Assembly (NCBI RefSeq): GCF_000026545.1 | Contig: NC_011601.1 | Direction: 5' to 3' (one strand) | From: Escherichia coli O127:H6 str. E2348/69 | Lineage (GTDB): Bacteria > Pseudomonadota > Gammaproteobacteria > Enterobacterales > Enterobacteriaceae | Length of the DNA: 64,000 nucleotides | In this document: positions 3,888-60,654 of the stretch, in pieces | Layout of the letters: the number at the start of each line of letters is the position of its first letter | How positions within the stretch are numbered: the stretch's first letter is position 1 | The notes under the pieces: model-generated | What the model was told of the DNA's origin: nothing | Database searches by the model: none | The model's input: the letters and a program-made list of their open reading frames with translations, nothing else | Program-made: the position numbers and the translations under genes

Positions 3888-4180
3888 TGGCAATCCTCCC
3901 ATGGCAGAGCCGGGATACCGCTGGCGCGTGCCAGCAGGGCTTCCAGTCGTGCACGTAAAATGCAGTCCAGTGCGCCTTTGTCATCGACATTCAGCTGTAC
4001 GCCGCGCACGTTGTAGCGGGCGAGAACGTCCAGAATGGTGGTGCGAATTGCATCGCCAAACTGTTTCTCAACGCTGCTGTTGATTTGCAGGTCGATATCC
4101 TGCGTATCGAGTGGGGCGATGCGTATCATCACATCCCCAGACTCAAGGGTGCCTGCAACGGCGGGCTGGTTTATTTTCAT
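3884..4180 (-). CDS. citD: citrate lyase acyl carrier protein (gamma subunit)
   Basis: 98-aa ORF, operon position. Confidence 0.9.
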
Positions 4181-4194
4181 TTTTCACCTGTTTC

Positions 4195-5253
4195 TCATGC
4201 GGGGGTCTTTTGACGAGCTGCCGCGTCCTGGCGGGAGTGCTCAAGCAGGTTCTGCAAATAATGCAGCGTGACTGCAGGGACCAGCGGCGCGATAGCCGTG
4301 AGATCGTTTTTCGCCAGCAGTTGACGTACCCGGGAAGCGGATATCGGCATCTCCTGGTAACGCAGCCGCTCAATTTCAACCAGTTCGATGGGCGGTGCGG
4401 AGATAGTCGGCGTTTCCAGCCAGTAGCGCATATCCTGGTTGTACTGGGCGGTAACGCGACAAAAGGGTTCAGTACCGACAAAGCGGTGAGTTACACCCAG
4501 CGCGGGAGCGAGGTACTGACGGAAAATCTTCAGATCAATTTCGGTGTAGCAATGGTTAATGACGCTCTGTTCTTTAATGAAGTAGCAAGGGAACGTAGCG
4601 CGGGAGATGATGTATTCGGAGCCGCGATGCACGGTCAGGCGTGGAATATCGGCGGTGCCTTTTAACACCAGATTCAGCCGGTCTTCATAGGGGAAGCGTG
4701 AAGAATCTTCTTTGACTAAAAACAGATGCAACCAGTCGCACTGTGCCGCAGCCTGTTGAATCAGATAACGGTGACCATTCGTAAAGGGATTGGCGTTCAT
4801 CACAATGCAGCCAATCTTGTTCCCTGGATGACGAAATTTTTTCAGCGATTCGGCATAGCGTTTCAGTCGCGTGGCGCTGTTTTCCATCAGCACCATCACG
4901 CCGGGTACGCTGGTCAGCGTGGAAAAACCGCACTGGCGGAACAGCGCCTCGTATTCGGTTTTGGTATAAATAAACAGATGCGTGCTATGCCGCTCATAGG
5001 CGAGGTTTATCAGTTCAGTGGCTAATGTCAGCGCCAGTCCTTCACCGCGAACGGATTCACTGATAGCAACGCATTTAATAATATTTCCGGCAATTCCACC
5101 GCACGCGATAAGCTTTTCATCGCGGGTTACGGTAATAAATACTTCGACTGTGGTGTCAACGCTCAAATCATTTTCATGCAGGAATTGGGCGATTTCCGCC
5201 ATTTTTTTATTTTCTGAACGTTTTACGCGGGTGAAAATATCATTGCCGAACAT
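4195..5253 (-). CDS. citC: [citrate (pro-3S)-lyase] ligase
   Basis: ORF-track frame 4195..5340 trimmed to ATG at 5253 (MFGNDIF...) giving 352 aa; first gene of cit operon. Confidence 0.85.
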   Translation of the reverse strand: MFGNDIFTRVKRSENKKMAEIAQFLHENDLSVDTTVEVFITVTRDEKLIACGGIAGNIIKCVAISESVRGEGLALTLATELINLAYERHSTHLFIYTKTEYEALFRQCGFSTLTSVPGVMVLMENSATRLKRYAESLKKFRHPGNKIGCIVMNANPFTNGHRYLIQQAAAQCDWLHLFLVKEDSSRFPYEDRLNLVLKGTADIPRLTVHRGSEYIISRATFPCYFIKEQSVINHCYTEIDLKIFRQYLAPALGVTHRFVGTEPFCRVTAQYNQDMRYWLETPTISAPPIELVEIERLRYQEMPISASRVRQLLAKNDLTAIAPLVPAVTLHYLQNLLEHSRQDAAARQKTPA

Positions 5254-5632
5254 AATAAATAGTATCCTGAAGGTGCATGTTGTTATCGATTTGCAACGAA
5301 TGTTGTTCAATGTTGCAAATTGATAACCTTTTATTTTCACTTGGGAGAAAGGGGGGCGATCGAGGTATATCTTTTTCTCCTTTCGCTATACATCCTAAGG
5401 AGTATTTTGGCGTGAAATTTTGATTTATTTCACATAGAGTTAGTGGTTTTTTATTTATTTAATGGTTTTAAGTTTTTTAACTAATGTAATTACGAAATAA
5501 CCCGCAGCTTTAAGTGATTTAATTGATTTAATGAATAAAATTTGCCACGATCATATTTAATATCTATGTATTTTGATTCAACATTTTAATTACATCCGTC
5601 AAAGAGGCTCGGGACAACCCGCAAGGAAAACA
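5254..5632. promoter_or_regulatory. AT-rich divergent promoter region between citC and dpiB
   Basis: ~380 bp AT-rich spacer between divergently oriented citC and dpiB start codons. Confidence 0.5.
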
Positions 5633-7291
5633 ATGTTGCAGCTTAACGAGAATAAACAGTTTGCATTTTTCCAAAGACTGGCATTTCCGCTGCGTATCTT
5701 TTTGCTGATTCTGGTGTTCTCAATATTTGTCATTGCAGCCCTGGCGCAATATTTTACAGCCAGTTTTGAGGACTATTTAACGCTTCATGTGCGCGACATG
5801 GCAATGAATCAGGCAAAAATTATTGCTTCTAATGACAGTATCATCAGTGCAGTGAAAACGCGTGACTACAAGAGGCTGGCGACCATCGCTGACAAATTAC
5901 AAAGAGATACTGATTTCGATTATGTGGTGATTGGCGATCGGCACTCGATTCGTCTTTACCATCCTAATCCGGAGAAAATTGGTTATCCTATGCAGTTCAC
6001 CAAACCGGGCGCGCTGGAGAAAGGGGAGAGCTACTTCATCACCGGGAAAGGGTCAATTGGCATGGCGATGCGTGCCAAAACGCCAATCTTTGATGACGAT
6101 GGAAAAGTCATCGGCGTGGTGTCGATTGGCTACCTGGTGAGTAAAATCGATAGCTGGCGGGCTGAGTTTTTATTACCGATGGCAGGCGTGTTTGTCGTGC
6201 TGTTAGGGATTTTGATGTTGCTGTCGTGGTTCCTGGCCGCGCATATCCGTCGGCAGATGATGGGCATGGAGCCAAAGCAAATCGCTCGCGTGGTCCGTCA
6301 GCAAGAGGCGCTGTTTAGTTCGGTTTATGAAGGGCTGATTGCGGTGGATCCGCACGGGTACATTACCGCCATCAATCGTAACGCAAGAAAGATGCTGGGG
6401 CTGAGCTCCCCCGGACGGCAATGGTTGGGTAAACCCATTGCTGAAGTGGTCAGGCCCGCCGATTTCTTTACCGAACAGATTGATGAAAAACGTCAGGATG
6501 TGGTGGCGAACTTTAACGGTCTGAGCGTTATTGCCAACCGGGAAGCTATTCGTTCTGGCGATGATTTACTGGGGGCCATTATTAGCTTTCGTAGTAAAGA
6601 CGAAATTTCCACCCTCAATGCGCAACTGACGCAAATTAAACAATACGTCGAGAGCCTTCGTACATTGCGACACGAGCATCTCAATTGGATGTCGACGCTC
6701 AATGGTCTGTTGCAGATGAAAGAGTATGATCGCGTGCTGGCGATGGTGCAGGGGGAGTCTCAGGCCCAGCAACAGCTTATTGACAGCCTGCGTGAGGCGT
6801 TTGCCGATCGCCAGGTGGCGGGGCTGCTTTTTGGTAAAGTGCAGCGCGCCCGCGAACTGGGGCTAAAAATGGTCATCGTCCCCGGTAGCCAGCTTTCGCA
6901 GCTGCCGCCAGGACTGGACAGCACCGAGTTTGCAGCCATTGTTGGCAATTTACTTGATAACGCCTTCGAAGCAAGCCTGCGTAGCGATGAAGGAAACAAG
7001 ATCGTTGAATTATTCCTCAGCGATGAAGGCGATGATGTGGTGATTGAAGTCGCCGATCAGGGCTGCGGCGTTCCAGAGTCTCTACGAGACAAAATATTTG
7101 AGCAGGGTGTCAGTACGCGTGCTGACGAGCCCGGTGAACATGGCATTGGGTTGTACTTGATTGCCAGCTACGTAACGCGCTGCGGTGGTGTTATCACTCT
7201 CGAAGATAATGATCCCTGCGGTACCTTATTTTCAATCTATATTCCGAAAGTGAAACCTAATGACAGCTCCATTAACCCTATTGATCGTTGA
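5633..7291 (+). CDS. dpiB: citrate-sensing sensor histidine kinase
   Basis: ORF-track frame trimmed to ATG at 5633 (MLQLNENKQ...) giving 552 aa; two TM segments flanking periplasmic domain, C-terminal HATPase motifs; RBS aaggaaaa upstream. Confidence 0.9.
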   Translation: MLQLNENKQFAFFQRLAFPLRIFLLILVFSIFVIAALAQYFTASFEDYLTLHVRDMAMNQAKIIASNDSIISAVKTRDYKRLATIADKLQRDTDFDYVVIGDRHSIRLYHPNPEKIGYPMQFTKPGALEKGESYFITGKGSIGMAMRAKTPIFDDDGKVIGVVSIGYLVSKIDSWRAEFLLPMAGVFVVLLGILMLLSWFLAAHIRRQMMGMEPKQIARVVRQQEALFSSVYEGLIAVDPHGYITAINRNARKMLGLSSPGRQWLGKPIAEVVRPADFFTEQIDEKRQDVVANFNGLSVIANREAIRSGDDLLGAIISFRSKDEISTLNAQLTQIKQYVESLRTLRHEHLNWMSTLNGLLQMKEYDRVLAMVQGESQAQQQLIDSLREAFADRQVAGLLFGKVQRARELGLKMVIVPGSQLSQLPPGLDSTEFAAIVGNLLDNAFEASLRSDEGNKIVELFLSDEGDDVVIEVADQGCGVPESLRDKIFEQGVSTRADEPGEHGIGLYLIASYVTRCGGVITLEDNDPCGTLFSIYIPKVKPNDSSINPIDR

Positions 7292-7980: not shown

Positions 7981-9366
7981 TTACTTACCTGTGACCGCGG
8001 CTGCCGTTCCTGGCACCATCAGCTCTGTAGCAACGATAACAATCACCAAACCAACAAGCACCGGCACCGAGGTGCGTTTTACGACTTCAAACGGCGAGAT
8101 CTTCGCCATCCCGGCAACCGCAACGACTACGCCAGAAACGGGTGATAGGGTACGACCCAGGTTTGACGCCTGCAGCATCGGGATAGTCAAATACGCCGGG
8201 TTAATGCCGGAGGAGTGCGCCAGTTTCGGGATCATCTCAACAAACGCATAAAACGGCGCATTGCCTGAACCGGTCGTGACTGCCGCCAGCATTGTCAGGA
8301 TCACCAATACCAGCATCAGGATGATACTCGCCGAACCAAACGAGGTAGCGATAGAAATCAGACTTTGAATAAAGCCGATGGTGCTAAGCCCCTGAGCGAA
8401 TACCCCAGCGGCAACCAGCAGCATCACCACGTTAGCAAATGCATCTGCCATACCGCGATAAGCCACTTCCAGACCAGAGAAAACTTTCTGGGTATTAAAG
8501 CTGCGGATGAACTCCAGAATGGAGGCAATTAGCATACAAATCACCAGAATAGTGATGATGTGTAATTGCGGACCCCATTTGCCGTCAAAAATCAGCACTC
8601 CGATGATCGGCGTGAACGGCAAAATGGCATAAAACGCAGGGGCAGTGGTGGTGATTTCACTGACATCTAACATTTCATGAGAGATGTGCTCTTTTTTATC
8701 CAGATAACGTTGCCAGAAGAAGTGGGCGATTGCCATGCCGATAATTGCAGCAATTGAGATAGGCAGCGTTGTTTTGAAGGCGAAGTCAATCAGCGACATT
8801 TCGGAAGCCTGCGCCGCCAGCACCACATCCCCTGAAGTCGGTGCGAGAATAATCGCCGCCGGGGAGGCACAAATGGCAGCAGCTGCGCCACGACTGATAC
8901 CAACGTTTACCATCACCGGAAACAGGGTTGCCATCAGCAAAACACCCAGACCGGTTGCGGAAGAGACAGCCAGTGACATCAGACAGGCAACAAAATAGGC
9001 GGCAATCATCAGAAGGTAAGGGGAGTTAATATACTGCAATGGTTTTGACGCCAGCTTGACCACCATATCATTCGCGCCGATATGGGTCATGTAAGCGGCA
9101 AAGCCACACAGCATCATAATCATCATGCCGAGGTCGCCGCCGCGGCTCATTAGCAATATTTTAACGTATTCAACGATATCCGTGGCGCTGTAGCCTGTTG
9201 AAGCCTGGCTGGACGGTAACACTTTGTGCCCCATAATGGCACTGATAATCAGCAATAACAGGCCACCGACAAATAACACGCCAGTGGCAGAATACCCTTT
9301 AATGATGTAGCGAGCTACACCCACAATAACCACAACTCCAATAAGGAGTTCAATGAATGTCAGCAT
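7981..9366 (-). CDS. dcuC: anaerobic C4-dicarboxylate transporter DcuC
   Basis: 461-aa polytopic membrane ORF; conserved position after dpiA. Confidence 0.9.
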   Translation of the reverse strand: MLTFIELLIGVVVIVGVARYIIKGYSATGVLFVGGLLLLIISAIMGHKVLPSSQASTGYSATDIVEYVKILLMSRGGDLGMMIMMLCGFAAYMTHIGANDMVVKLASKPLQYINSPYLLMIAAYFVACLMSLAVSSATGLGVLLMATLFPVMVNVGISRGAAAAICASPAAIILAPTSGDVVLAAQASEMSLIDFAFKTTLPISIAAIIGMAIAHFFWQRYLDKKEHISHEMLDVSEITTTAPAFYAILPFTPIIGVLIFDGKWGPQLHIITILVICMLIASILEFIRSFNTQKVFSGLEVAYRGMADAFANVVMLLVAAGVFAQGLSTIGFIQSLISIATSFGSASIILMLVLVILTMLAAVTTGSGNAPFYAFVEMIPKLAHSSGINPAYLTIPMLQASNLGRTLSPVSGVVVAVAGMAKISPFEVVKRTSVPVLVGLVIVIVATELMVPGTAAAVTGK

Positions 9367-9942
9367 AATTTTTCCTGTCTCCAGGCCCCAAAGTAAATAA
9401 TAAAAAATCTCTAAAAATTAAAGAAAAAATATGCCGAATAAATCACCAGCGAATGCTGATTGAAATCAATAAAAATAGCTATTAACACATTGATATTGCT
9501 GTTTTTTATACCTGGATAACAAAATTCATTTTTGTAGTTAATCATTACAAAGCAATGATGTATGCAAAATTGATAAAATATTGAATTGATTTTGTTGGGA
9601 AATTGATAAATTTTTTGTTTAAAGAAACGGGCGTTCATTAACATGGCCCGGCAATACTGGGAATGTTTATTGATTGATTTTTATATTTGTTTAAAAAATA
9701 AGCGCATTTGTGCTTTTATCTATTGTTGTTTGTATTGGAGGAGTGTTCTTTGATTGAGAACGTTTGCGGGCAAAAAAAATCGTTTAAGTTTCCAGAACAA
9801 TCCGATAATATTCCCTCAAAATTGCACCGCATAAATATATAAAACACTCGGATTATTCCTTATATTGGTGCTGTTAAGGTTATGTTTATTTTAAACTGGT
9901 TATGCTAGTCGTGGTTTTTTGATAAATATCTCATGGTTACTA

Positions 9943-10503
9943 ATGAGCACTGGTAAATATATTTACGCACTTCTCTTTGTTTTTACTCAATTAGTCGGCA
10001 TTGAAGACGCTTCTGCTGACACACCTCAATGGCTGTCGACATTTAAAGAGAATGTTGCAGAAACATGGCAACAGCCACAACATTATGACTTGTACATACC
10101 CGCGATCACCTGGCATGCGCGTTTTGCCTATGACAAAGAAAAAACCGATCGCTATAACGAGCGACCGTGGGGCGGCGGTTTTGGTCAGTCGCGTTGGGAT
10201 GAAAAAGGAAACTGGCATGGCCTGTATGCCATGGCATTTAAGGACTCGTGGAACAAATGGGAACCGATTGCCGGATACGGATGGGAAAGTACCTGGCGAC
10301 CGCTGGCGGATGAAAATTTTCATTTAGGCCTGGGATTTACCGCTGGCGTAACGGCGCGCGATAACTGGAATTACATCCCTCTTCCGGTTCTACTGCCATT
10401 GGCCTCTGTGGGGTATGGCCCCGCGACGTTTCAGATGACCTACATTCCGGGTACCTACAACAATGGCAATGTGTACTTTGCCTGGATGCGCTTTCAGTTT
10501 TGA
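9943..10503 (+). CDS. pagP: lipid A palmitoyltransferase PagP (outer membrane)
   Basis: ORF-track frame starts at TTG 9919; first ATG at 9943 gives 186 aa; mature region ([21 protein letters not shown]...) recognisable. Confidence 0.85.
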
Positions 10504-51377: not shown

Positions 51378-51406
51378 GCCTGATGCGACGCGGCAGCGTC
51401 GCATCC
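51378..51406. repeat. REP-type palindrome downstream of nagE
   Basis: gcctgatgcgacgcggcagcgtcgcatcc; arms gatgcgacgc / gcgtcgcatc. Confidence 0.6.
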
Positions 51407-51417
51407 AACAATAAAAA

Positions 51418-51447
51418 GCGGCAGGGATATTCTCTGCCGCTTTTTTT
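51418..51447 (+). terminator. rho-independent terminator of nagE
   Basis: gcggcagggatattctctgccgc followed by ttttttt. Confidence 0.7.
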
Positions 51448-51455
51448 GTCTGAGA

Positions 51456-52736
51456 TTACATTGGGAAGATAAAAACAGCGCCTGCACAAAGCGCCAGAAT
51501 GCGGATGAGATACATTGGTACAGAGAACACCCAGAATTCGGGAAGTTTGTATTTCCCCATTCCGAGGATCATGGCTGGCATTCCGTCAATAGGCATATAG
51601 CCGCCGTTCCAGCCTGAAATCACCACCGCAATCGCTGCAGCGGTCGGGTTAAGCCCAAGGCTGGTACAGGCGGCAATGGCGATGGGGGCAAAAATATAAA
51701 CAGACCCCATATTCGAACCCGTGAAGGTGGCGCAGGTACTGGTAAGCAAAGCAAAGGCGACAATAAATACAAATGGTGAGACGCCAGAACCGAGCACACC
51801 TGCAACGGCATCGCCAACCATCGCCGTAAAGCCGGTGCCCGCCAGTGCATCAGCTACACCGATCACCCCCGCCATCATTAAAATGACCGGCGCTCCCATA
51901 TGATCGCGAACTTCTTTAAAGTCCAGTACATCGATCATCAGAACAAACGCACCCGCAAGACCCGGAATAACGAAGGCGATATTTCCCAGAATGTTCATTA
52001 GCATCATGCCGATAACGCTGACAGCGAATGCGGCAATAGTGCAATATTCTTTCCAGGCAGGAAGGGCGTTAAACGTTTCCTCGCGTGCCGCCAGCGCATC
52101 CTCGGAAGCATCCGCAATGGGATGATCCGGAAGAAAACGGTAGGCAATAAGACTCCATGCGAGGAACGCCGCTGACATGATGAGATTCACCAGCGCAAAG
52201 CGCCCCATCGAAATCTCCTGATGAAAACCCGCGGTTTCGAGTACGGTCGCCGTAACGCCAAAGAGAAGCGCGAGATTGATAGGAAGAAGCGGGTGGTTGG
52301 TGGCAAATCCCAGGGGCATCATTAATTTCGATGTTGGTAGCTTTTTACTGTACGGAATGGTGGATACCAGCGACAGAATCAGCACGTAATAACCGGTCGC
52401 GCCGGTGCCTGCAAGACTGGCACCCAGCATAACAATGACTAACAACAGCCCGTAGCTGCGGTAACTGCCTTTATTGACCAGGCTTATCATCGCAGATTTA
52501 ACGTTGCTGATAAGCCGGGTTTTTTGTAGCGCTGCCATGACCACCATAAACCCTGCAATCATCACCACGCTTGGATTGACGAATCCGGCAAAAGCCTGTT
52601 GAACGGTCGAAAGTCCCGAGACAACCAGCAATAAACACGCAAGCAGTGGCGGTGCGCCAAATGGCATTTTGTCCGACATGATCAGCACGATCATCAGGAC
52701 CAGTATTCCTAATGCCAGGATCATTTCCATTGTCAT
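51456..52736 (-). CDS. ion-transporter-superfamily anion permease (putative organic/sugar-acid transporter)
   Basis: ORF-track frame 51456..52982 trimmed to ATG at 52736 (MTMEMILALG...) with RBS aggagaga; ~427-aa polytopic membrane protein; last gene of leftward island operon. Confidence 0.7.
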   Translation of the reverse strand: MTMEMILALGILVLMIVLIMSDKMPFGAPPLLACLLLVVSGLSTVQQAFAGFVNPSVVMIAGFMVVMAALQKTRLISNVKSAMISLVNKGSYRSYGLLLVIVMLGASLAGTGATGYYVLILSLVSTIPYSKKLPTSKLMMPLGFATNHPLLPINLALLFGVTATVLETAGFHQEISMGRFALVNLIMSAAFLAWSLIAYRFLPDHPIADASEDALAAREETFNALPAWKEYCTIAAFAVSVIGMMLMNILGNIAFVIPGLAGAFVLMIDVLDFKEVRDHMGAPVILMMAGVIGVADALAGTGFTAMVGDAVAGVLGSGVSPFVFIVAFALLTSTCATFTGSNMGSVYIFAPIAIAACTSLGLNPTAAAIAVVISGWNGGYMPIDGMPAMILGMGKYKLPEFWVFSVPMYLIRILALCAGAVFIFPM

Positions 52737-52749
52737 TTTTTCTCTCCTT

Positions 52750-53220
52750 TTAGGCTTCCAGCATGTCGCGCGGTACCTTAAAGACCGCTTTGCGTACTGA
52801 CGTAGCCGCGCCAATCGCGCACAGCGCCTGGTGAGGTTCCTCAGGCATAAAGACGGCGAAATCACCGGGGTGTAGAGTGATGGCGACACTGTTTTCAGGG
52901 GATGGGGCGATAAACAGATCGGGCTTACGTTCTTCATCGTTTTCGCGAGCGATGGGCCGCGTTCCCGCATTAATGCCCTCACAACCAGTAATCACCACCT
53001 GGATATCGGCCCACAGATGGTGATACTCCGTATGGCGGAGTTCGGCGGGTTGCGTGTCTGAAGTTCCCAGCGTGCAGAACCACCGACATCCTTCAGGTTG
53101 CCAGCGACCGTCCTCTCTGGCGGATAACGCCGATAACGAACACTCCGGGCACAGCAGAATATTTCTCACCCAGGCGGGAAGCCCCGCCAGCGACAAATGG
53201 TTGAGATTACCGATAATCAT
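52750..53220 (-). CDS. YhcH/YjgK/YiaL-family protein (NanQ-like)
   Basis: 156-aa ORF with PGDFAVFMPEEPH motif resembling E. coli YhcH; ATGA overlap with upstream gene. Confidence 0.75.
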   Translation of the reverse strand: MIIGNLNHLSLAGLPAWVRNILLCPECSLSALSAREDGRWQPEGCRWFCTLGTSDTQPAELRHTEYHHLWADIQVVITGCEGINAGTRPIARENDEERKPDLFIAPSPENSVAITLHPGDFAVFMPEEPHQALCAIGAATSVRKAVFKVPRDMLEA

Positions 53221-54386
53221 GATGCCTGCCCCTTAACCCACTCGGGGGAGATGCGCACGTACTTGATGGCCTGACGCCACCAGGTGTAAGCGATATGTAG
53301 CGTACCGTCCGGGCTTTGTTTGATGCTGGGGTAGGAGAACTCACGATTTAGCTTTTCCAGGGAATTGTTGGTCATGCAGTTGCCGTCGCCTTCATCGAGA
53401 TTGCGCCGCCACGGCCAGCTTTTCCCACCATCGGCAGAAATCGCTACCGTCATCGGCGCGCGTGGGGCCCCCCAGAAAGCGGAGCGTCCGACGGCTGTCG
53501 GTTCTTTGCGGCTGTCGTCGCCATCGTCGATTTCGTCATAAAGCGACGCGCGACGTTCTACTGCGCCTGCCGCACTCATCGCGTTGTACACCAGCGCCAG
53601 TTCGCCGCTGGCAAGCGTCGTTACCTGAATAGACGAATTGTTGTTGGGCAATTCGGTAGCTTGCGGCACCGACCAACTCTCGCCGTTGTCCACTGAATGG
53701 CTGATATAGATGTTGTCTGCCCAACGGCTGCGAAAGAGAGCAACCAACGTACCGTCGTGCAGCATTGTGATATTCATATGAACGCAGCCGAGACTTTGCG
53801 GCACCTCGACATCGCGCCATGAGTGACCACCGTCAGCGGAAATTTTCACTGCGCTGATATCATCATTGCCGACCCATTTTTCGCCGGGTTGGGTACGGCA
53901 ATAAAAGACGGGAAGCAGCCAGTTACCGTTATCAAGCACCGTGATCGGCTGGCGAATGAACGTGCCGGGTTTATCGAGCAGGGTGGCAATCTCGCCCCAG
54001 GTTTGCCCAAGGTCGTCAGACTTACGGTAGCGGACGATGGCCGTGTCCTGATTACCGGATATTTGTGCGGTCCATAGCAGCCACAGCACGTTATCCGGCG
54101 CGAGAAACAGCACCGGGTTTTGCTCTGAACGCGTGTCATCGTGGGAAAGTTTGACCGCATCGCTCCACTGCGTTCTGCCAGCGGGCAATCGTGATCCCCA
54201 GACAGAAATATCGGCAATACCTTCCTGTGTTCCCGCAAACCAGACGCACATTAATGCGCCATCCGGCATTGGCAGAATATTCGCCGCGTGGTTTTGCGGG
54301 CAGGACGAGGGCAGCATGGCGGTAAGCACATGCGAATCGTTTTCGGATGGACGGATGACGCCGTCACGAATAAGGGCTACAGACAT
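53217..54386 (-). CDS. BNR/Asp-box repeat protein, sialidase-fold, no signal peptide
   Basis: 389-aa ORF with four Asp-boxes (SDDLGQTW, SADGGHSW, SVDNGESW, SADGGKSW); N-terminus lacks hydrophobic signal; RBS ggag upstream. Confidence 0.75.
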   Translation of the reverse strand: MSVALIRDGVIRPSENDSHVLTAMLPSSCPQNHAANILPMPDGALMCVWFAGTQEGIADISVWGSRLPAGRTQWSDAVKLSHDDTRSEQNPVLFLAPDNVLWLLWTAQISGNQDTAIVRYRKSDDLGQTWGEIATLLDKPGTFIRQPITVLDNGNWLLPVFYCRTQPGEKWVGNDDISAVKISADGGHSWRDVEVPQSLGCVHMNITMLHDGTLVALFRSRWADNIYISHSVDNGESWSVPQATELPNNNSSIQVTTLASGELALVYNAMSAAGAVERRASLYDEIDDGDDSRKEPTAVGRSAFWGAPRAPMTVAISADGGKSWPWRRNLDEGDGNCMTNNSLEKLNREFSYPSIKQSPDGTLHIAYTWWRQAIKYVRISPEWVKGQAS

Positions 54387-54421
54387 AGTTAGACTCCATC
54401 TTAAAGTTGGTAATAGATTTA

Positions 54422-55180
54422 TTAATGCGAGTGCGATTCATGCGTTTCGATCAATGTCGAAACTTTTTTATTTCTTCTTTCACGGATAATATTGAGTGTC
54501 TCAACACTTAATGAGAAAAATATCGCGAAGTAGAGATACTCTTTGGCAATATGAATGTTGAGACTATCGGCAACCAGCAATACACCGACAAACAATAAAA
54601 AGGTTAACGCCAGTATTTTTATTGACGGCGTGGCGTTAACGAAATCACCAATTGTTTTCGCCGCAAACATCATGACACCGACGGCAATCATTACGGCGGC
54701 AATCATGATAAATATATGCTGAGAAAGGCCGACGGCGGTGATCACCGAATCCAGGCTAAACACGATATCGAGCAGCATTATCTGTACAATGGCACCGCAC
54801 AACGACAGTTGCCGCGATCCGCTGCCATGTTCGTCTTCCTGCGCGGGCGACAGCTCTTCGCGTATCTCCTGTATCGCTTTATAAATCAGGAACAGCCCGC
54901 CCCCGAGCAGAATCAACGTGCGGAACGAAATCTCCAGCGTCAGCACGGTAAAAAGCGGCTGGGTAATATGTGAAAGCCACGCAATGGATATCAGCAATAA
55001 TATCCGCATAATCATCGCGCAGCTTAAACCCAGTTTACGCGCCATATTTTGTTGTGATAACGGAAGTTTTGCCACCACCAGTGAAAGAAAAATAATATTA
55101 TCCACCCCAAGAATAATTTCCAGAAAGGTGAGGGTAATTAAAGTGAGCCAGATATCTGGCTGCATAAACCACAAAAACAT
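54422..55180 (-). CDS. TerC-family integral membrane protein
   Basis: 252-aa polytopic ORF (…TFLEIILGVDNIIFLSLV…); visibly more AT-rich than flanking island genes. Confidence 0.7.
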   Translation of the reverse strand: MFLWFMQPDIWLTLITLTFLEIILGVDNIIFLSLVVAKLPLSQQNMARKLGLSCAMIMRILLLISIAWLSHITQPLFTVLTLEISFRTLILLGGGLFLIYKAIQEIREELSPAQEDEHGSGSRQLSLCGAIVQIMLLDIVFSLDSVITAVGLSQHIFIMIAAVMIAVGVMMFAAKTIGDFVNATPSIKILALTFLLFVGVLLVADSLNIHIAKEYLYFAIFFSLSVETLNIIRERRNKKVSTLIETHESHSH

Positions 55181-55239
55181 GGGGTAATCCTTTATTCTCT
55201 TTATCTAAACTTTATAGCGGGCTGGATAATAGAGTTAAT

Positions 55240-56127
55240 TTAATTAATGTTATAATGACGAATAATTTGTTGAATCTCGCTGATCTGTTCAGGCGTGAAA
55301 TTAACCGCGTAGCGGCTATCACCAACATCATGCCCCATAAGCTGCAACGCTTTTTTCACCGCAGCCGGGGAGAATGCTACTTTATAAAGATCGGTACGCA
55401 GGCCCGTTACACTCTCCTGTGCTTCATAAGACCCTTCAATATCACCGGCATGGAAGCGAGACCAGATGGCATTGATTTCTCGCGGCGCGATGTTGGCGAG
55501 CCCAGAGATACAGGCTGAACATCCCTCGACAAACCCTTTATGGATCAGCGAATCCGGGCCGTTGAGCACATTAAAGCCGTCAATGTCGCGCACCGCATCG
55601 AGAAAACCCTTCAGGCTTTCGTCGCTTCCGGCGCTGTCTTTAATCCCAATGATATTGGGGTGCGACGCCAGAGCACGCGCGGTTTCTGGCTGGATCGTAT
55701 TGCCAGTGCGGGCCGGGATGTTATAGAGAAACATCGGAATGCTCAGTGCGTCGGCAATTGCGCTGTAATGCGCAATCAACTCTTCCTGTTTCAGCGGTAC
55801 GAAGTAAGGGGCAATGACCGACACGGCATCTACGCCAAGTTTTTCAATCTGCTGACCCAGACGAATCGTTTCGCGCGTAGAGATCTCGCCAATGTGTGCC
55901 ACGACCGGCGCACGACCAGCCACTTCATCCACGCAGGTTTGCGTAACGCTGAGCTTCTCCTGTTCATTCAACACAAAAAATTCGCCGTTGGTGCCGCCGC
56001 AAAAAATCGCGTTACCCGCTTCCAGTTGACGATTCACCTGCACTTTTAACGCCGGGATATTCAGACTGCCGGTCGCGGTAAACGGGGTGACGATAGCGGT
56101 TAATACACCTTCAATGGTTTTCGGCAT
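55240..56127 (-). CDS. DapA/NanA-family class I aldolase
   Basis: 295-aa ORF with GTNGEF and Schiff-base lysine context IGIKDS. Confidence 0.8.
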   Translation of the reverse strand: MPKTIEGVLTAIVTPFTATGSLNIPALKVQVNRQLEAGNAIFCGGTNGEFFVLNEQEKLSVTQTCVDEVAGRAPVVAHIGEISTRETIRLGQQIEKLGVDAVSVIAPYFVPLKQEELIAHYSAIADALSIPMFLYNIPARTGNTIQPETARALASHPNIIGIKDSAGSDESLKGFLDAVRDIDGFNVLNGPDSLIHKGFVEGCSACISGLANIAPREINAIWSRFHAGDIEGSYEAQESVTGLRTDLYKVAFSPAAVKKALQLMGHDVGDSRYAVNFTPEQISEIQQIIRHYNIN

Positions 56128-56130
56128 GAT

Positions 56131-57288
56131 TTATTCCTTAAATTGATGTTGCGGAAACAGTGTTTGGTAAATGGCCTGTACGTCCTGTAGATCAAGCTGG
56201 CACGGCACATTGTTCATAAGGCGCTTCACGTTCAGTGCCGCCTCGCTAAGAGAGGCAATATCCTCTGGCGGTACGCCGAGATCTGCGAGATTGTTGGGTA
56301 GCTTGAGTTGATTGACTAATGCCTGTAACCAGGTCACCAGGGCATGAGATTTTTCTTCCGCGCTCAGGGCGGTTTCCGCATCGGGAATGCAATCCCAGAC
56401 CCGGGCAAATTTCTCGACCGCCCAGGGGCGAACAAACGCCATGCACGGCGCCAGCAAGATGGCATTCGCGACGCCATGCGGCAGATGATATTTGCCACCT
56501 AACGGGTAGGAGAGCGCATGAACGAGATGCGTGCCCGCATGGGTTATCGCTACGCCGCCATAGTAAGACGCCCACAGCATTTCCAGTTTTGCGCGCAGAT
56601 CCTGAGGATCGTTCACGGCGGGTTGAATGTGCCGGAAAAGTTTACTTAACCCAGTCAGCGCCGCGTTATCGCTGACCGGATTTGCCACGGTCGCGGTAAA
56701 ACACTCCAGTAAGTGGCAAAGAGCATCAATGCCCGTGGACGCCGCAATATGCGCAGGCATGCTGGTGGTCAGTTCCGGGAAAAGCGCCACATAGTCTGGT
56801 AACAGCATCTGGGAAATAATACCCACCTTCGTGCTTTGCTCAGGGATTGCCAGAATCGCATTCGGCGTGGCTTCTGAGCCGGTTCCGGCGGTTGTAGGAA
56901 TCAACCATGATTGCACCCGCTGAGTTGGTTTTTCACCCGCAAGCAGCGCATCCAGCCCCGGAGATTGTGGATGGCAAAGCACCGATAGCAGCTTTGCCAC
57001 ATCCAACACGCTGCCACCGCCGATCCCGACCACCACATCAAAAGAGGCATCGCCAAGGACATCCATTAGCTGGCGCACATCATGATGCGTGGGCTCTGCG
57101 GGCACATTATCGATAACGTTAACCTGCGGGCAGTGCTGTTCCAGTAAGGCGCGAATCTGCTGCACACCGTCGAGCTGCGCAATATTACGGTCAGTGACCA
57201 GCAGCATTTTTCTGATGTCGGGTAAGAGCGACGTCAGGGAAGGGATAGCGCCTGCGCCGCTCAGTATCGTGCTATTGATAATTACCAC
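56131..57288 (-). CDS. iron-containing alcohol dehydrogenase family oxidoreductase
   Basis: 385-aa ORF, GTG start with RBS gagagg; GGGS motif (GIGGGSVLDVAK) and His-rich metal site (THAGTHLVHALSYPLGGKYHLPHG). Confidence 0.8.
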   Translation of the reverse strand: MVIINSTILSGAGAIPSLTSLLPDIRKMLLVTDRNIAQLDGVQQIRALLEQHCPQVNVIDNVPAEPTHHDVRQLMDVLGDASFDVVVGIGGGSVLDVAKLLSVLCHPQSPGLDALLAGEKPTQRVQSWLIPTTAGTGSEATPNAILAIPEQSTKVGIISQMLLPDYVALFPELTTSMPAHIAASTGIDALCHLLECFTATVANPVSDNAALTGLSKLFRHIQPAVNDPQDLRAKLEMLWASYYGGVAITHAGTHLVHALSYPLGGKYHLPHGVANAILLAPCMAFVRPWAVEKFARVWDCIPDAETALSAEEKSHALVTWLQALVNQLKLPNNLADLGVPPEDIASLSEAALNVKRLMNNVPCQLDLQDVQAIYQTLFPQHQFKE

Positions 57289-57457
57289 AAATAACCTCTC
57301 TTCTGGTGATTGAATTCAATCATTCAAAATGCCGTAGCCTACGTAACATGGTCTAATTTTATAATTTATTCGAGTGATTAATAACTTGAGCTTGCTCACA
57401 TTTAATCAATTGTGATTGAATATAATCATTATTATCATAAAACAACCTGGAGTGATG
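57289..57457. promoter_or_regulatory. divergent promoter/operator region of the island with two 16-bp palindromic sites
   Basis: perfect palindrome tgattgaattcaatca (57306..57321) and 14/16-identical tgattgaatataatca (57413..57428), each just upstream of one operon's first gene. Confidence 0.55.
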
Positions 57458-58693
57458 ATGGAAAAGGGAATCACTAAGCCGAGCATTCTCGTCGTTGCCG
57501 ATGATTTCACGGGAGCCAACGACGCGGGGGTAAGCCTGGCGCAGGTGGGGCATACAGTTGATGTGGCCTTTGAAATGCCTTATCACGGTGATGCCAGCGT
57601 ATGGGTGATTAACAGCGACAGCCGGGCGATGGATCCTAAGCTGGCGGCGATGAAAATAACCTCGCTGATGAGTCATCTCCCTCTGGCGAATAACCCGCCG
57701 CTCGTGATTAAAAAGATAGATTCCACGCTTCGAGGCAATATCGGCGCAGAAATTGAAGCCCTGATGAAGGCATGCGGTATAACGGGCGCAGTGATTGCCC
57801 CCGCATTTCCTCAGGCGGGAAGGACCACAGTGGCCGGTGAGTGTTGGGTAAACGGTGTGCGGATAACGGAAACCGAGTTTGCCAGCGATCCGAAAACCCC
57901 GGTATTGAGCGCCCGAATTGCGGACATCATCCGGTTGCAGACGGCCATTCCATGCCAGCCCGTTACGGTTTCTCAGCTCAGCCATTTGTCTTATGAGCAA
58001 CCGTGGATTGGCGTGATAGATGCGCAGACGGACAGCGACCTGGATCGCATCGCTGCCGCTGTGATGCAGGCTAAACAACCGCTACTGCTGGTCGGCTCCG
58101 CTGGTATTTGTGATGCCGTTGCCCGGCGCTCCGCGATTATGCCGCCACCCACCGTGCTGGCCATTATTGGTTCAATGAGCGAAATCGCTCAACGGCAGAT
58201 CGCCACACTGCATTCACACCCACGTATCACACAGATATACGTCGATGTTGAACACATTCTGGCAGGCAATGCCAGTGACTATGACGCGCGTATTGTGCAG
58301 GCCTTGCAGAAAGGCGACCACTGCATTGTCCACACCTGTAACGATTCTGTAGCAAGGCATCAGATCGACACCCTTTGCCAGCGTTGGCAGATGAGTCGCG
58401 CTGCACTTGGGGAAAAAATTTGTCGGTTTCTTGGCGAACTTACCCGGCAAGTTCTGCTTCGCACAATGCCCGATGCGCTTTATCTCTCTGGTGGCGATGT
58501 CGCAATGGCAACAGCCAGTGCGTTAGGCGCGACCGGGTTTCGTATTACGGGGAAGGTGGCGCAATGCGTTCCATATGGTCACTTTCTGGGCGGCGTCTGG
58601 TCCCGTTCGGTGATGACGAAAGCCGGTGGGTTTGGCGATGAGACCACGTTGCATCAGGTTCTGAATTTTATCGAGGAGAAGCGTAGTGAATAA
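57458..58693 (+). CDS. four-carbon acid-sugar kinase family protein (YgbK/OtnK-like)
   Basis: ORF-track frame from 57416; ATG at 57458 with GGAG 5 nt upstream; ILVVADDFTGANDAG and KKIDSTLRGNIGAE motifs. Confidence 0.8.
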   Translation: MEKGITKPSILVVADDFTGANDAGVSLAQVGHTVDVAFEMPYHGDASVWVINSDSRAMDPKLAAMKITSLMSHLPLANNPPLVIKKIDSTLRGNIGAEIEALMKACGITGAVIAPAFPQAGRTTVAGECWVNGVRITETEFASDPKTPVLSARIADIIRLQTAIPCQPVTVSQLSHLSYEQPWIGVIDAQTDSDLDRIAAAVMQAKQPLLLVGSAGICDAVARRSAIMPPPTVLAIIGSMSEIAQRQIATLHSHPRITQIYVDVEHILAGNASDYDARIVQALQKGDHCIVHTCNDSVARHQIDTLCQRWQMSRAALGEKICRFLGELTRQVLLRTMPDALYLSGGDVAMATASALGATGFRITGKVAQCVPYGHFLGGVWSRSVMTKAGGFGDETTLHQVLNFIEEKRSE

Positions 58694-59672
58694 CATTATT
58701 GCGGTAACGATGGGCGATCCGGCGGGTATTGGCCCGGAGATCATTATTAAATCCCTGAGCGAAGCCGGGCTTGCTGGTACCCCGGTGGTGGTGGTGGGCT
58801 GTGTGCGCACGCTGCGACGTATTATGGCGATGAATATCACGCCGCAGGCAGAGTTACGCGTCATTCAAAAGGTGTGCGACGCCCACTTTGCTCCCGGCGT
58901 GATTAACGTGATGGATGAGCCTCTGGCTAACCCCGATGCGCTGACACCTGGTGTGGTACAGGCTGCGGCAGGCGATTTAGCGTATCGCTGTATCAAACGT
59001 GCAACGGCCCTGGCCTTATCAGGCGAGGTGAAAGCCATAGCCACTGCGCCGTTGAATAAAGAAGCGCTGCATCTTGGCGGGCATAACTATCCGGGGCATA
59101 CGGAATTGCTGGCCCATCTTACCGGCAGCAAAGAGTACGCGATGGTGCTCTATACCGATAAGCTCAAGGTTATCCATATTTCGACTCACATCTCACTGCG
59201 TAAATTCCTGGATACTTTGAATGGTGAAAGGGTCAAAACGGTTATTCGAGTTGCGAACCACTTCCTGAAACGTGTCGGCATTGAGCGTCCGCGTATTGCC
59301 GTGGCGGGTGTAAATCCACATGCAGGGGAACACGGTTTATTCGGCACTGAGGAAATCGAGATTATCGCACCTGCGATTGAAGCAATGCAGGCCGAAGATA
59401 TTGATGTTACTGGCCCGTGCCCGCCAGATACCGTGTTCATGCAGTGCCATGAAGGGCTATTCGATATGGTGGTGGCTATGTACCATGATCAGGGGCATAT
59501 CCCTTTAAAACTGCTTGGATTTTATGATGGGGTGAATATCACCGCCGGGTTGCCATTTATTCGCACTTCTGCCGACCACGGCACCGCGTTTGATATTGCC
59601 TGGACAGGAAAAGCCAAGTCTGAGAGCATGGCAGTTTCCATCCAGTTAGCAATGCAGATTTCGCGAGAATAA
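58686..59672 (+). CDS. PdxA-family NAD-dependent dehydrogenase (PdxA2-like)
   Basis: 328-aa ORF, GTG start overlapping kinase stop by 8 bp; [14 protein letters not shown] and NPHAGE...YHDQG...[18 protein letters not shown] motifs. Confidence 0.8.
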
Positions 59673-59673
59673 A

Positions 59674-60435
59674 ATGAAGGGATATAACCGGTTAGAGCAG
59701 ATCATGGATTACCTGAAAAGCCATAATCTGGTCACCGTTGATGAGCTGGTGGCGGTAACCAATGCGTCGCCGGCTACGATTCGTCGAGACCTGATAAAAC
59801 TCGATGAGCAGGGTGTTATCAGCCGTACACACGGCGGTGTGACCCTCAACCGGTTTATTCCTACCCAACCGACTACCCATGAGAAAATGCAGCGCAGCCT
59901 GGCGGAAAAACATGCTATCGCCAGCGCAGCGGCGTCAATGGTCAAAGCGGGGGATTCCGTCGTCCTTGATGCCGGTACGACAATGATTGAACTTGCGCGG
60001 CAGATTACACATTTACCGCTTCGCGTGATCACCAGCGACCTGCATATCGCGCTTTTTTTGGCTGAATTCAAGCAAATTGAAGTGACGATTATCGGCGGAC
60101 GTATCGACGACTCCAGCCAGTCCTGCATTGGCGAACATGGTCGTAAATTGCTGCAAAATACCTGGCCGGACGTGGCATTTTTAAGCTGTAACAGCTGGGA
60201 TCTTGAAAAGGGTATTACAGCACCCACGGAAGAGAAAGCCGCACTAAAACGCGATCTTATCGCGCATGCTTCGCGCAAAATTCTCCTGGCTGACAGCTCA
60301 AAATACGGTTCATGGTCGCTGTTTAATATCGCGCATCTTAATGAACTGACAGAGATTATTACGGATAGTCAGCTTGATGGGCAGACGCGTAGAACGCTTG
60401 CGTCCTTGTCGACGCGTTTAATCATAGCCGACTAA
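59674..60435 (+). CDS. DeoR-family transcriptional regulator
   Basis: 253-aa ORF; N-terminal HTH (…[21 protein letters not shown]…), C-terminal sugar-phosphate-binding domain. Confidence 0.8.
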
Positions 60436-60654
60436 TCTATGACTCTGCGGCCAGCTCATCCGGCAATTTAATAAATGCGTCAGGCTGGCGACGTTTGGCC
60501 TTACGTTTCCAGCGCGAGGATCTGCTGGCAGTAGCGCAGAAAACGCCCCAATATCTTACGCAAAACCATTTTTTCGCTAACTAACAGTTGTCAGCCTGTC
60601 CCGCTTATAAGATCATACGCCGTTATACGTTGTTTACGCTTTGAGGAATCCACG

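Follow-up and report, generated by a model that had tools for sequence, protein, structure and literature searches.

A cytoplasmic protein of the GH33 sialidase fold in a putative feeder pathway to D-threonate in Escherichia coli

What does a protein with the shape of a sialidase do inside a bacterial cell? The question is raised by a gene at positions 53217-54386 (minus strand) of a 64,000-nucleotide stretch of Escherichia coli O127:H6 str. E2348/69 (contig NC_011601.1), which is called the window here. Its product, referred to as the BNR protein, is entered in RefSeq, at 100% identity, as WP_000109434.1 under the name 'sialidase family protein'. The gene is genuine, and its product is an enzyme of sialidase shape that remains in the cytoplasm. 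We are confident, if short of certain, that this enzyme acts upstream of a pyruvate aldolase, an aldehyde reductase and the D-threonate route, all under one regulator. We rate it as a GH33-derived cytoplasmic enzyme family within an undescribed feeder pathway to D-threonate; the label exo-alpha-sialidase that databases give it is probably wrong.

53217..54386, minus strand: BNR_2/GH33-like six-bladed propeller protein, 389 residues (candidate site His33, Glu55, His203, Arg219, Arg221, Arg309, Tyr352 and Arg371)

The open reading frame (ORF) starts at the first start codon past an in-frame stop, so that no alternative start lies upstream; this excludes an upstream start with a secretion signal, which the initial annotation of this DNA had left as a way out of its cytoplasmic assignment. 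The absence of a signal peptide is borne out as well: the N-terminus is charged throughout, its longest hydrophobic run is four residues or fewer, and residues 11-24 lie inside the confidently folded propeller of the model. The four canonical Asp-boxes (S-x-D-x-G-x-x-W) that had pointed to a sialidase-type propeller are present at residues 123, 183, 231 and 317, and at least one such box occurred in just 1.2% of the shuffled sequences of a shuffle control. Pfam BNR_2 matches at full length (residues 43-365, E=4e-65). Comparison of the predicted structure gave the GH33 fold, and the protein shows the six-bladed β-propeller with Asp-box repeats of GH33 sialidases. Orthologues from 80 species are identical in length to the E. 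coli protein, and a ratio of nonsynonymous to synonymous substitution rates (dN/dS) of 0.07-0.10 against orthologues from six genera indicates strong purifying selection. NCBIfam returned zero matches for the protein, and NCBIfam and Pfam together found no fused domain except BNR_2 in the longer family members.

The catalytic positions of GH33 were mapped by sequence-profile alignments, including a second profile of the C-terminal third. The numbering of the M. viridifaciens enzyme, which we take to be R68, D92, E260, R276, R342 and Y370, served as a check.

His33, at the position of the RIP arginine: 'NHAANILPMPDG' against 'YRIPALTVTPDG' in the profile alignment
Glu55 (possibly Asp59), at the position of the acid/base Asp: aligned with the Asp of 'SSVD' in 4FJ6
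His203, at the position of the Tyr-activating Glu: 16 residues before the second arginine, as E260 precedes R276
Arg219, second arginine: aligned with the Arg of 'NMRD' in 4FJ6
Arg309, third arginine: aligned with R342 of M. viridifaciens (chain residue 300)
Tyr352, at the position of the nucleophile Tyr: aligned with the GY(T/S) motif of 7LBU, invariant

At the first of these positions, 'QNHAANILPMPDG' of the BNR protein aligns gap-free with 'NYRIPALTVTPDG' of 1EUR and 'RIPGLVTT' of 4FJ6, and His33 occupies the place of the first arginine of the triad. All mapped catalytic positions, together with Arg145, Arg221, Asn248, Asn250 and Arg371, are invariant in the orthologues of the 80 species, where 21 polar positions are invariant. 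The alternative acid/base residue Asp59 is kept among the closer homologues only, and in a wider set with members as low as 31% identity some have Gln in place of His203. The initial annotation had made its case depend on the conserved catalytic residues of a sialidase, and by alignment these are found in part: the second and third arginines (Arg219 and Arg309) and Tyr352 are kept, but His33, Glu55 and His203 substitute for the RIP arginine, the Asp and the Glu. As far as the alignments tell, the carboxylate-binding and tyrosine half of the sialidase machinery has been kept with the scaffold and the other half has been remodelled. Nature has in this way carried out an informative experiment on the GH33 mechanism: a sialidase scaffold in which His stands for the RIP arginine as well as for the Tyr-activating glutamate.

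Compared to the GH33 exo-alpha-sialidases NedA of M. viridifaciens (1EUR), human cytosolic NEU2 (1SNT) and Kdnase (4M4N), the BNR protein shows just 15-19% identity and has the extra invariant residues Arg145, Arg221 and Arg371; moreover, its gene context is that of D-threonate, not N-acetylmannosamine (ManNAc), catabolism. The top PDB profile match is the Akkermansia sialidase Amuc_1547 (8HLS/8AXI/9EOB), with E=8e-15 over profile positions 130-360. Amuc_1547 also departs from the GH33 catalytic motif around the Tyr position, whereas it has a different N-terminal half, is secreted and mucin-acting, and has no gene context in common with the BNR gene.

In the family alignment, distant members at 31-40% identity (P0153, P0158, P0160, P0178 and P0194, and further P0198, P0216, P0217, P0233 and P0259) carry N-terminal hydrophobic segments and therefore look secreted or membrane-anchored. 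These members have Gln, not His, at the position of His203, and to judge from their sequences they may be a functionally separate exported branch of the family.

The BNR gene belongs to an island of nine genes between nagE and glnS, which are adjacent in K-12 with a 202-bp intergenic region.

51451..60578: nagE-glnS island, nine genes, 9.1 kb, replacing about 43 bp in the junction alignment to K-12
51456..52736, minus strand: SLC13/DASS-family anion permease, 426 residues (ATG at 52736, ribosome-binding site AAGGAGAG)
52750..53220, minus strand: YhcH/NanQ-family (DUF386) protein, putative anomerase or ring-opening enzyme (TIGR00022, 97 bits)
54422..55180, minus strand: TerC-family integral membrane protein, putatively for metal transport, in the slot of the SSS transporter of most other species
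55240..56127, minus strand: DapA/DHDPS-family class I pyruvate aldolase (Schiff-base Lys motif GIKDS; YNIPARTG)
56131..57288, minus strand: iron-containing alcohol dehydrogenase (Fe-ADH), putative aldehyde-acid reductase, first gene of the operon
57306..57324: operator-like element GTGATTGAATTCAATCATT with a perfect 16-bp palindrome within, 18-36 nt upstream of the Fe-ADH start
57412..57430: second copy of the operator-like element (GTGATTGAATATAATCATT), upstream of dtnK
57458..58693, plus strand: dtnK, D-threonate kinase (DUF1537 family; NF047819 equivalog, 533 bits against a cutoff of 450)
58686..59672, plus strand: D-threonate 4-phosphate dehydrogenase (decarboxylating; PdxA2; NF002891 equivalog, 680 bits against a cutoff of 583)
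59674..60435, plus strand: DeoR/GlpR-family regulator (family match)

The minus-strand genes run in the order Fe-ADH, 3 nt, DapA-like aldolase, 59 nt, TerC, 35 nt, BNR, overlap, YhcH-like protein, 13 nt, DASS permease, and sequence inspection found no terminator inside this operon. The stop codon TGA of the BNR gene overlaps the ATG of the YhcH-family gene in an ATGA (...caggcatcATGAttatc...), as had been read from the sequence before, and by this overlap the YhcH-family gene is predicted to be translationally coupled to the BNR gene. The proposed co-operonic arrangement with a YhcH-family gene and a DapA/NanA-family aldolase gene likewise stands; the aldolase gene does lie upstream, but the intervening TerC gene had gone unmentioned. 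PDB relatives of the YhcH-like protein are 9jrr and HI0227.

The divergent plus-strand unit, dtnK-pdxA2-DeoR gene, starts 170 bp from the minus-strand operon, and the 19-nt operator-like element occurs twice in the region between them, with the copies 106 bp apart. Among loci of Enterobacterales, Vibrio, Tolumonas and Gilliamella, 45 out of 45 have the motif TGATT-N6-AATCA in the divergent promoter, mostly in two copies about 105 bp apart. These conserved palindromes are good evidence at the DNA level that the two operons form one regulon controlled by the DeoR protein, which presumably acts as a repressor at both palindromes.

The plus-strand unit fixes the end of the pathway. In Salmonella, DtnK and PdxA2 convert D-threonate through D-threonate-4-phosphate to dihydroxyacetone phosphate (DHAP) and CO2; D-threonate catabolism there was reportedly described in the DUF1537 work of Zhang et al. 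in 2016. The E. coli genes, adjacent and overlapping at 58686-58693, pass the NCBIfam D-threonate equivalog cutoffs. Identity to the Salmonella proteins is 40% for DtnK and 75% for PdxA2 (PMC12928451). Compared to the Salmonella pair, the genes of E. coli make up the downstream part of a larger regulon, whose feeder operon holds the BNR, aldolase and reductase genes. No natural D-threonate source linked to DtnK and PdxA2 was found in the literature searched.

Since an aldolase followed by an aldehyde reductase would end in a 4-carbon hydroxy-acid, the aldolase product should be a 4-carbon aldehyde-acid, and the aldolase substrate in turn a 7-carbon 2-keto-3-deoxy dicarboxylic acid. The motif 'YNIPARTG' of the DapA-like enzyme aligns with 'YNVPSRTG' of E. 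coli DHDPS. Arg138 of DHDPS holds the distal carboxylate of aspartate semialdehyde, and its equivalent is retained in 58 of 62 module aldolases. In one lineage described below, an enzyme of the HpaI/GarL family, which acts mainly on dicarboxylic 2-keto acids (classically 4-hydroxy-2-oxoheptanedioate and 2-keto-3-deoxyglucarate), takes the place of the aldolase, and all transporter types seen with the module are anion or carboxylate carriers. The DHDPS-type Arg, the HpaI/GarL-family substitute and the anion carriers all fit a diacid substrate.

Two known systems follow a similar logic. The E. coli nan system (NanA with NanQ/YhcH) uses the same families to bring a cyclic 2-keto-3-deoxy acid into its open form and then to a class I aldolase; the NanQ/YhcH prototype provides the open-chain form to the aldolase (PMC8141875). 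In contrast to the nan system, the module aldolase has the DHDPS-type Arg, and its aldehyde would go to a reductase and the D-threonate enzymes, not to NanK and NanE. The GarL-GarR-GarK route of glucarate and galactarate, together with HpaI, takes a 2-keto-3-deoxy diacid to pyruvate and an aldehyde-acid, the latter on to a hydroxy-acid and this to a kinase, by the same logic with one carbon less; compared to it, the E. coli module uses other enzyme families, a 4-carbon rather than a 3-carbon intermediate and an extra upstream step by a sialidase-fold protein.

How constant is the BNR protein in this setting? The module recurs in proteobacteria, Bacillota, actinobacteria and a fungus. Eighty loci came from a scan that took one genome for each species, and ORF and BLAST analysis was carried out over 82 loci, several of which are interrupted by contig ends. 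The following genes were found near the BNR gene.

Fe-ADH: 65 of 82 loci
PdxA: 62 of 82 loci
DapA: 61 of 82 loci
DtnK: 60 of 82 loci
229-residue short-chain dehydrogenase/reductase (SDR): 58 of 82 loci
SSS transporter: 58 of 82 loci
DeoR: 49 of 82 loci
YhcH: 49 of 82 loci

The most frequent order is DeoR<PdxA<DtnK< and, divergently, >Fe-ADH>DapA>SSS>BNR>YhcH>SDR. The variant of E. coli, the K. oxytoca group and Kluyvera has TerC in the slot of SSS and the DASS permease in that of the SDR; the TerC gene belongs to the operon of this E. coli, Klebsiella and Kluyvera version. Alternative carriers are TAXI-TRAP (Vibrio, Lonepinella), DctPQM-TRAP, Dpp-type or small ABC systems and an extra ACS-family MFS protein, and a version with sigma-54 and TRAP exists. 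The SDR gene is translationally coupled to the BNR or YhcH gene in most lineages and is missing from E. coli, rhizobia and Ralstonia. Close BNR homologues (76-86% identity) occur in the K. oxytoca group, Kosakonia, Pantoea, Pluralibacter, Yersinia and Aeromonas, and the module is also present in Bacillus, Paenibacillus and Gilliamella. A tblastn search of plasmids gave 336 records, mostly from Rhizobium, Sinorhizobium, Pantoea, Ralstonia and Agrobacterium. The genes for BNR, a DapA-family protein, Fe-ADH, PdxA and a DUF1537 kinase stand together in R. solanacearum, S. meliloti pSymB, Agrobacterium pAt, P. stewartii and Azospirillum, in five annotated neighbourhoods whose transporters and regulators vary. 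In Ralstonia, DtnK and PdxA are fused (locus L002, 5115-7415; verified by NCBIfam). Names and lengths in UniProt further suggest fusions of HpcH/HpaI with BNR (648 residues) and of PdxA with BNR (711 residues, Devosia), and a 724-residue Azospirillum protein named 'modular' has the size of DapA plus BNR; the fusion entries in AFDB50 are A0A257H979, A0A1I1JV56 and A0A9P1JZ79.

Two distant versions are the most telling. Mycolicibacterium goodii (CP012150.1; locus L088, 1962-13728) retains BNR, SDR, DUF1537 kinase, PdxA and DeoR genes, and in it an HpcH/HpaI class II aldolase and an aldo-keto reductase substitute for the DapA-type aldolase and the Fe-ADH. The contig ERZ23162026 NODE_41 (locus L090, 3532-15815) carries a BNR gene whose product is 50% identical, together with DHDPS-family, PdxA, aldo-keto reductase, MFS and transcription-factor genes; fungal-specific transcription-factor domains and intron-split genes mark this contig as fungal. 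AFDB50 holds fungal orthologues at 50-54% identity from Aspergillus sections Nigri and Flavi (niger, oryzae, flavus) and Cercospora, and at 47% from Colletotrichum and Emericellopsis; orthologues also occur in lactobacilli, one of them a bee-gut species. The fungal cluster suggests transfer of the module between kingdoms. Because the aldolase and the reductase have been displaced by non-orthologous enzymes in Mycolicibacterium and the fungus, the roles of pyruvate aldolase and aldehyde reductase appear fixed irrespective of protein family, and the BNR protein is left as the sole constant, redox-neutral upstream step. No version of the module is without it, and this holds for the fungal and the actinobacterial one too.

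Starting from the observed anatomy and conservation of the module and the observed fold, we favour a scheme in which the BNR protein would carry out the first cytoplasmic, redox-neutral step of the DeoR-controlled module, with 3-deoxy-D-lyxo-hept-2-ulosaric acid (Dha) as the best candidate; taken together, this stands just below an even chance. An acidic sugar, either free Dha or a small Dha glycoside, would enter the E. coli cell through the DASS permease; elsewhere, SSS, TRAP, TAXI-TRAP, ABC or MFS carriers would bring it in. The BNR protein would act at the anomeric centre of the 3-deoxy-2-ulosaric acid, most likely by hydrolysing a small ketoside or masked form. Arg219 and Arg309 would bind the C1 carboxylate, Tyr352 and His203 would form the nucleophile pair with His203 as the base, and Glu55 would serve as acid/base. 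The YhcH-like protein would then provide the open-chain sugar acid, the DapA-type aldolase would cleave it into pyruvate and a 4-carbon aldehyde-acid (D-threuronate in the case of Dha), Fe-ADH would reduce the latter to D-threonate, and DtnK with PdxA2 would convert this to DHAP and CO2. The analogy to sialidase, NanQ and NanA and the kept Arg, Arg and Tyr suggest that the BNR protein releases the free ulosaric acid. That it is a ketoside hydrolase is the weakest link of the scheme, and we hold it tentatively, with the balance tipping mildly against it.

Dha is the side chain D sugar of rhamnogalacturonan-II (RG-II) and, to our knowledge, the one well-known natural 7-carbon 2-keto-3-deoxy diacid. 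The stereochemical argument is our own reasoning on Fischer projections. D-lyxo means C4 left, C5 left and C6 right; when the C3-C4 bond is cut, D-threuronate remains as the fragment OHC-C5(left)-C6(right)-COOH. Once reduced and renumbered from the carboxyl end, the fragment has C2 left and C3 right and is D-threonate. Dha is the best candidate because its C4-C7 fragment is exactly D-threo and matches the substrate of the divergently encoded kinase. Even so, Dha or a Dha conjugate as the substrate is a tentative proposal that we would put a shade lower again.

The hosts are in keeping with a pectin-derived substrate. By a wide margin they live with plants or pectin, as do Dickeya, Pectobacterium, Erwinia, Pantoea, the K. 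oxytoca group, the B. pumilus group, Gilliamella, rhizobia, Ralstonia and Aspergillus; Paenibacillus, Agrobacterium and soil actinomycetes are hosts as well. The arabinofuranosyl-Dha of side chain D can be freed from RG-II fragments by brief heating, and B. thetaiotaomicron secretes RG-II breakdown sugars, for several of which the pathways in other gut microbes are unconfirmed (2026 preprint). In several genera the module is flanked by unrelated housekeeping genes, with the exception of a GH28 gene in Pantoea. This gene, similar to rhamnogalacturonidases and polygalacturonases, adjoins the DeoR end in seven loci (L045, 1836-3179, and six related ones) and lacks an obvious signal sequence. As the seven loci are related, it is weak evidence for a link to pectin.

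An enzyme already known to act on Dha is the Dha-hydrolase BT1020 (GH143; 5MQS) of the RG-II polysaccharide utilization locus of B. thetaiotaomicron, which is far more distant from the BNR protein than GH33. BT1020 gave no match in the sequence-profile search with the BNR protein, which belongs to GH143 neither by sequence nor by structure. Compared to BT1020, a periplasmic or exported multidomain protein of about 1,080 residues, the BNR protein is one cytoplasmic domain encoded in a small-molecule catabolic operon.

The fullest form of the proposal is a new Dha route via D-threuronate and D-threonate to DHAP, opened by a GH33-derived His/Glu/His enzyme family, which has moved horizontally between bacteria and fungi associated with pectin and has also reached phylogroup-B2 E. 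coli, including extraintestinal pathogenic E. coli (ExPEC), ST131 and Nissle. This we regard as possible rather than probable. If true, it would provide a physiological source of D-threonate, a function for a widespread 'sialidase family protein' mislabelled as exo-alpha-sialidase or neuraminidase, and the missing catabolic route for one rare RG-II sugar. It would also explain a region that sets B2 and ExPEC strains, ST131 and the probiotic Nissle 1917 among them, apart from K-12-like strains. B2 E. coli could then cross-feed on plant-fibre breakdown products, and a diet-dependent colonisation trait would become directly testable. In the literature searched and in NCBIfam (June 2026), no function is assigned to the BNR, DapA-like and Fe-ADH genes.

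Several points weigh against the favoured scheme. In the profile alignment, three out of the six classical catalytic positions of GH33 carry another residue, so that hydrolysis is not assured, and His33, Glu55 and His203 could even form a metal site. An obligatory cytoplasmic glycosidase is puzzling because the carriers look suited to monosaccharide-sized anions. Neither the 229-residue SDR, which follows BNR or YhcH in 58 of the 82 loci, nor the TerC protein has a role in the scheme. Stand-alone SSS-BNR-SDR trios, with no aldolase, reductase, kinase or PdxA gene within 10 kb, occur at L032 8569-11853, L039 8566-11862, L075 8515-11850, L061 6754-10174 and L066 8543-11880, in the hosts Pantoea rodasii, P. 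dispersa, Enterobacter cancerogenus, Bacillus swezeyi and B. glycinifermentans; NCBIfam gave generic matches only for SDR and SSS. That free Dha is available in the gut is a supposition. Finally, the literature searched held no biochemical or genetic data on the module genes, so that the identity of the substrate is purely inferred.

The strongest competitor keeps the logic of the module and replaces Dha by another ulosonic or ulosaric acid or conjugate of plant, fungal or microbial origin. All module-level evidence applies to such a substrate equally, no result of the analysis identifies the sugar, and the SDR together with the stand-alone trios hints at chemistry past simple Dha release. Nevertheless, 7-carbon 2-keto-3-deoxy acids are rare among known natural compounds, the usual alternatives would give no D-threonate upon aldol cleavage by the same stereochemical reasoning, and the DHDPS-type Arg and the HpaI-type replacement favour a diacid. 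We consider a substrate other than Dha unlikely.

The individual sugar acids set aside by this reasoning were 3-deoxy-D-arabino-heptulosonate (DAH), which would yield D-erythrose upon aldol cleavage, 3-deoxy-D-manno-octulosonate (Kdo), which would yield D-arabinose, N-acetylneuraminate (Neu5Ac) and ketodeoxynonulosonate (Kdn), which would yield hexoses, and acids of the 2-keto-3-deoxygluconate (KDG) type, which would yield glyceraldehyde. Ascorbate products and aceric acid would give no D-threo 4-carbon aldehyde-acid.

A second competitor concerns the chemistry rather than the sugar: the BNR protein might be no glycosidase and instead take up a monosaccharide form after its import. A lactone or anhydro form might be hydrolysed, a 2,3-unsaturated (glycal) form hydrated, or the ring anomerised or opened, and the aldolase substrate would arise with no glycosidic bond cut. 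The initial annotation had named import of an intact glycoside or a non-hydrolytic role as the alternatives, and both still stand. The transporters, of monosaccharide or small-anion type, would suit this, as would the exchange of three classical catalytic residues for His, Glu and His. NanB, NanC and intramolecular trans-sialidases (IT-sialidases) appear among the BNR match lists; these GH33 relatives make or hydrate 2,7-anhydro and 2,3-didehydro sialic acids. On the other side, Arg219, Arg309 and the nucleophile Tyr never vary, in keeping with retaining sialidases, true lactonases resemble the protein far less than GH33 enzymes do, and the E. coli variant keeps BNR without the SDR, which argues against a simple dehydrogenase-plus-lactonase pair. 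Such a non-glycosidase role is improbable, a little more so than a different sugar. The BNR protein as the lactonase partner of the SDR was a separate candidate and is unlikely, as the E. coli, rhizobial and Ralstonia versions have BNR without SDR.

Returning to ketoside release from a 7-carbon diacid, this reading also has to be set against the one first given to the locus, which compared it to a sialic-acid (nan) toolkit. The BNR protein would then be a genuine exo-alpha-sialidase for Neu5Ac or Kdn, and a NanA-like lyase and a NanQ-like anomerase would be its partners in an accessory nan toolkit. The GH33 fold, the Asp-boxes, the RefSeq name and the YhcH-family and DapA/NanA-family neighbours all speak for a sialidase. 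Nevertheless, by alignment other residues stand where such an enzyme has its RIP arginine, its catalytic Glu and its acid/base Asp, which leaves the catalytic set half kept, and the protein has no NCBIfam match. The lyase scores under both NanA cutoffs (144.9 against 281; 110.6 against 382) and the YhcH-like protein under that of the NanQ equivalog (91.5 against 160), so that neither is a member of these equivalogs, and the lyase has its DHDPS-type Arg where NanA has Leu. Neither nanK, nanE nor nanT accompanies the BNR operon, which lacks ManNAc kinase and epimerase genes, and the hosts are chiefly plant-associated bacteria and fungi. Moreover, the operon is co-regulated with the divergent genes for D-threonate kinase and D-threonate-4-phosphate dehydrogenase, which had been missed before and which point to a 7-carbon diacid rather than a nonulosonic acid. 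On this sequence evidence a genuine sialidase is largely refuted and very improbable.

Least credible of all is a decaying or non-catalytic propeller, that is a binding protein or island remnant, to which the incomplete classical catalytic set might point, given the low dN/dS, a gene intact in 1046 of 1047 E. coli carriers, the 21 invariant polar positions and the presence of BNR in every module version, fungal and actinobacterial ones too.

The island itself was found in 1081 of 5426 complete E. coli genomes, each time on the chromosome. The BNR gene is full-length in 1046 genomes, among them ST131, Nissle 1917, APEC O2:K1 and clone D i2. No integrase, insertion sequence or tRNA gene was found at the borders of the island, and it has no mobility genes. 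A 2026 comparative paper, the one source on the island in the literature searched, names it 'GR 6 nagE..glnS', describes it as common to ExPEC and LF82, files it among uncharacterised sugar-metabolism regions and mentions a similar S. meliloti cluster (PMC12928451). Rfam showed no riboswitch or other RNA in the island and no yybP-ykoY riboswitch near the TerC gene, and a consensus scan for promoters and terminators stayed at background level. The mechanical ORF list starts the permease at GTG 52982 (508 residues, overlapping the YhcH gene) and dtnK at TTG 57416; RefSeq and the ribosome-binding sites support ATG 52736 for the permease and ATG 57458 for dtnK.

At the nagE border, one further element was found.

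51413..51447: hairpin with T/A runs (AAAAAGCGGCAGGGATATTCTCTGCCGCTTTTTTT) between the convergent nagE and permease genes; K-12 has the same element downstream of nagE

To judge by its sequence, this hairpin is likely a bidirectional terminator for nagE and the permease gene. A palindrome resembling repetitive extragenic palindromic (REP) elements (GCCTGATGCGACGC...GCGTCGCATC, about 51378-51405) stands before it, directly downstream of nagE, and in K-12 too. Elsewhere in the window, the stretches 4001-6000, 8001-10000 and 14001-16000 have a G+C content of 0.44-0.46 against a background of 0.50-0.57 and are possibly other horizontally acquired segments.

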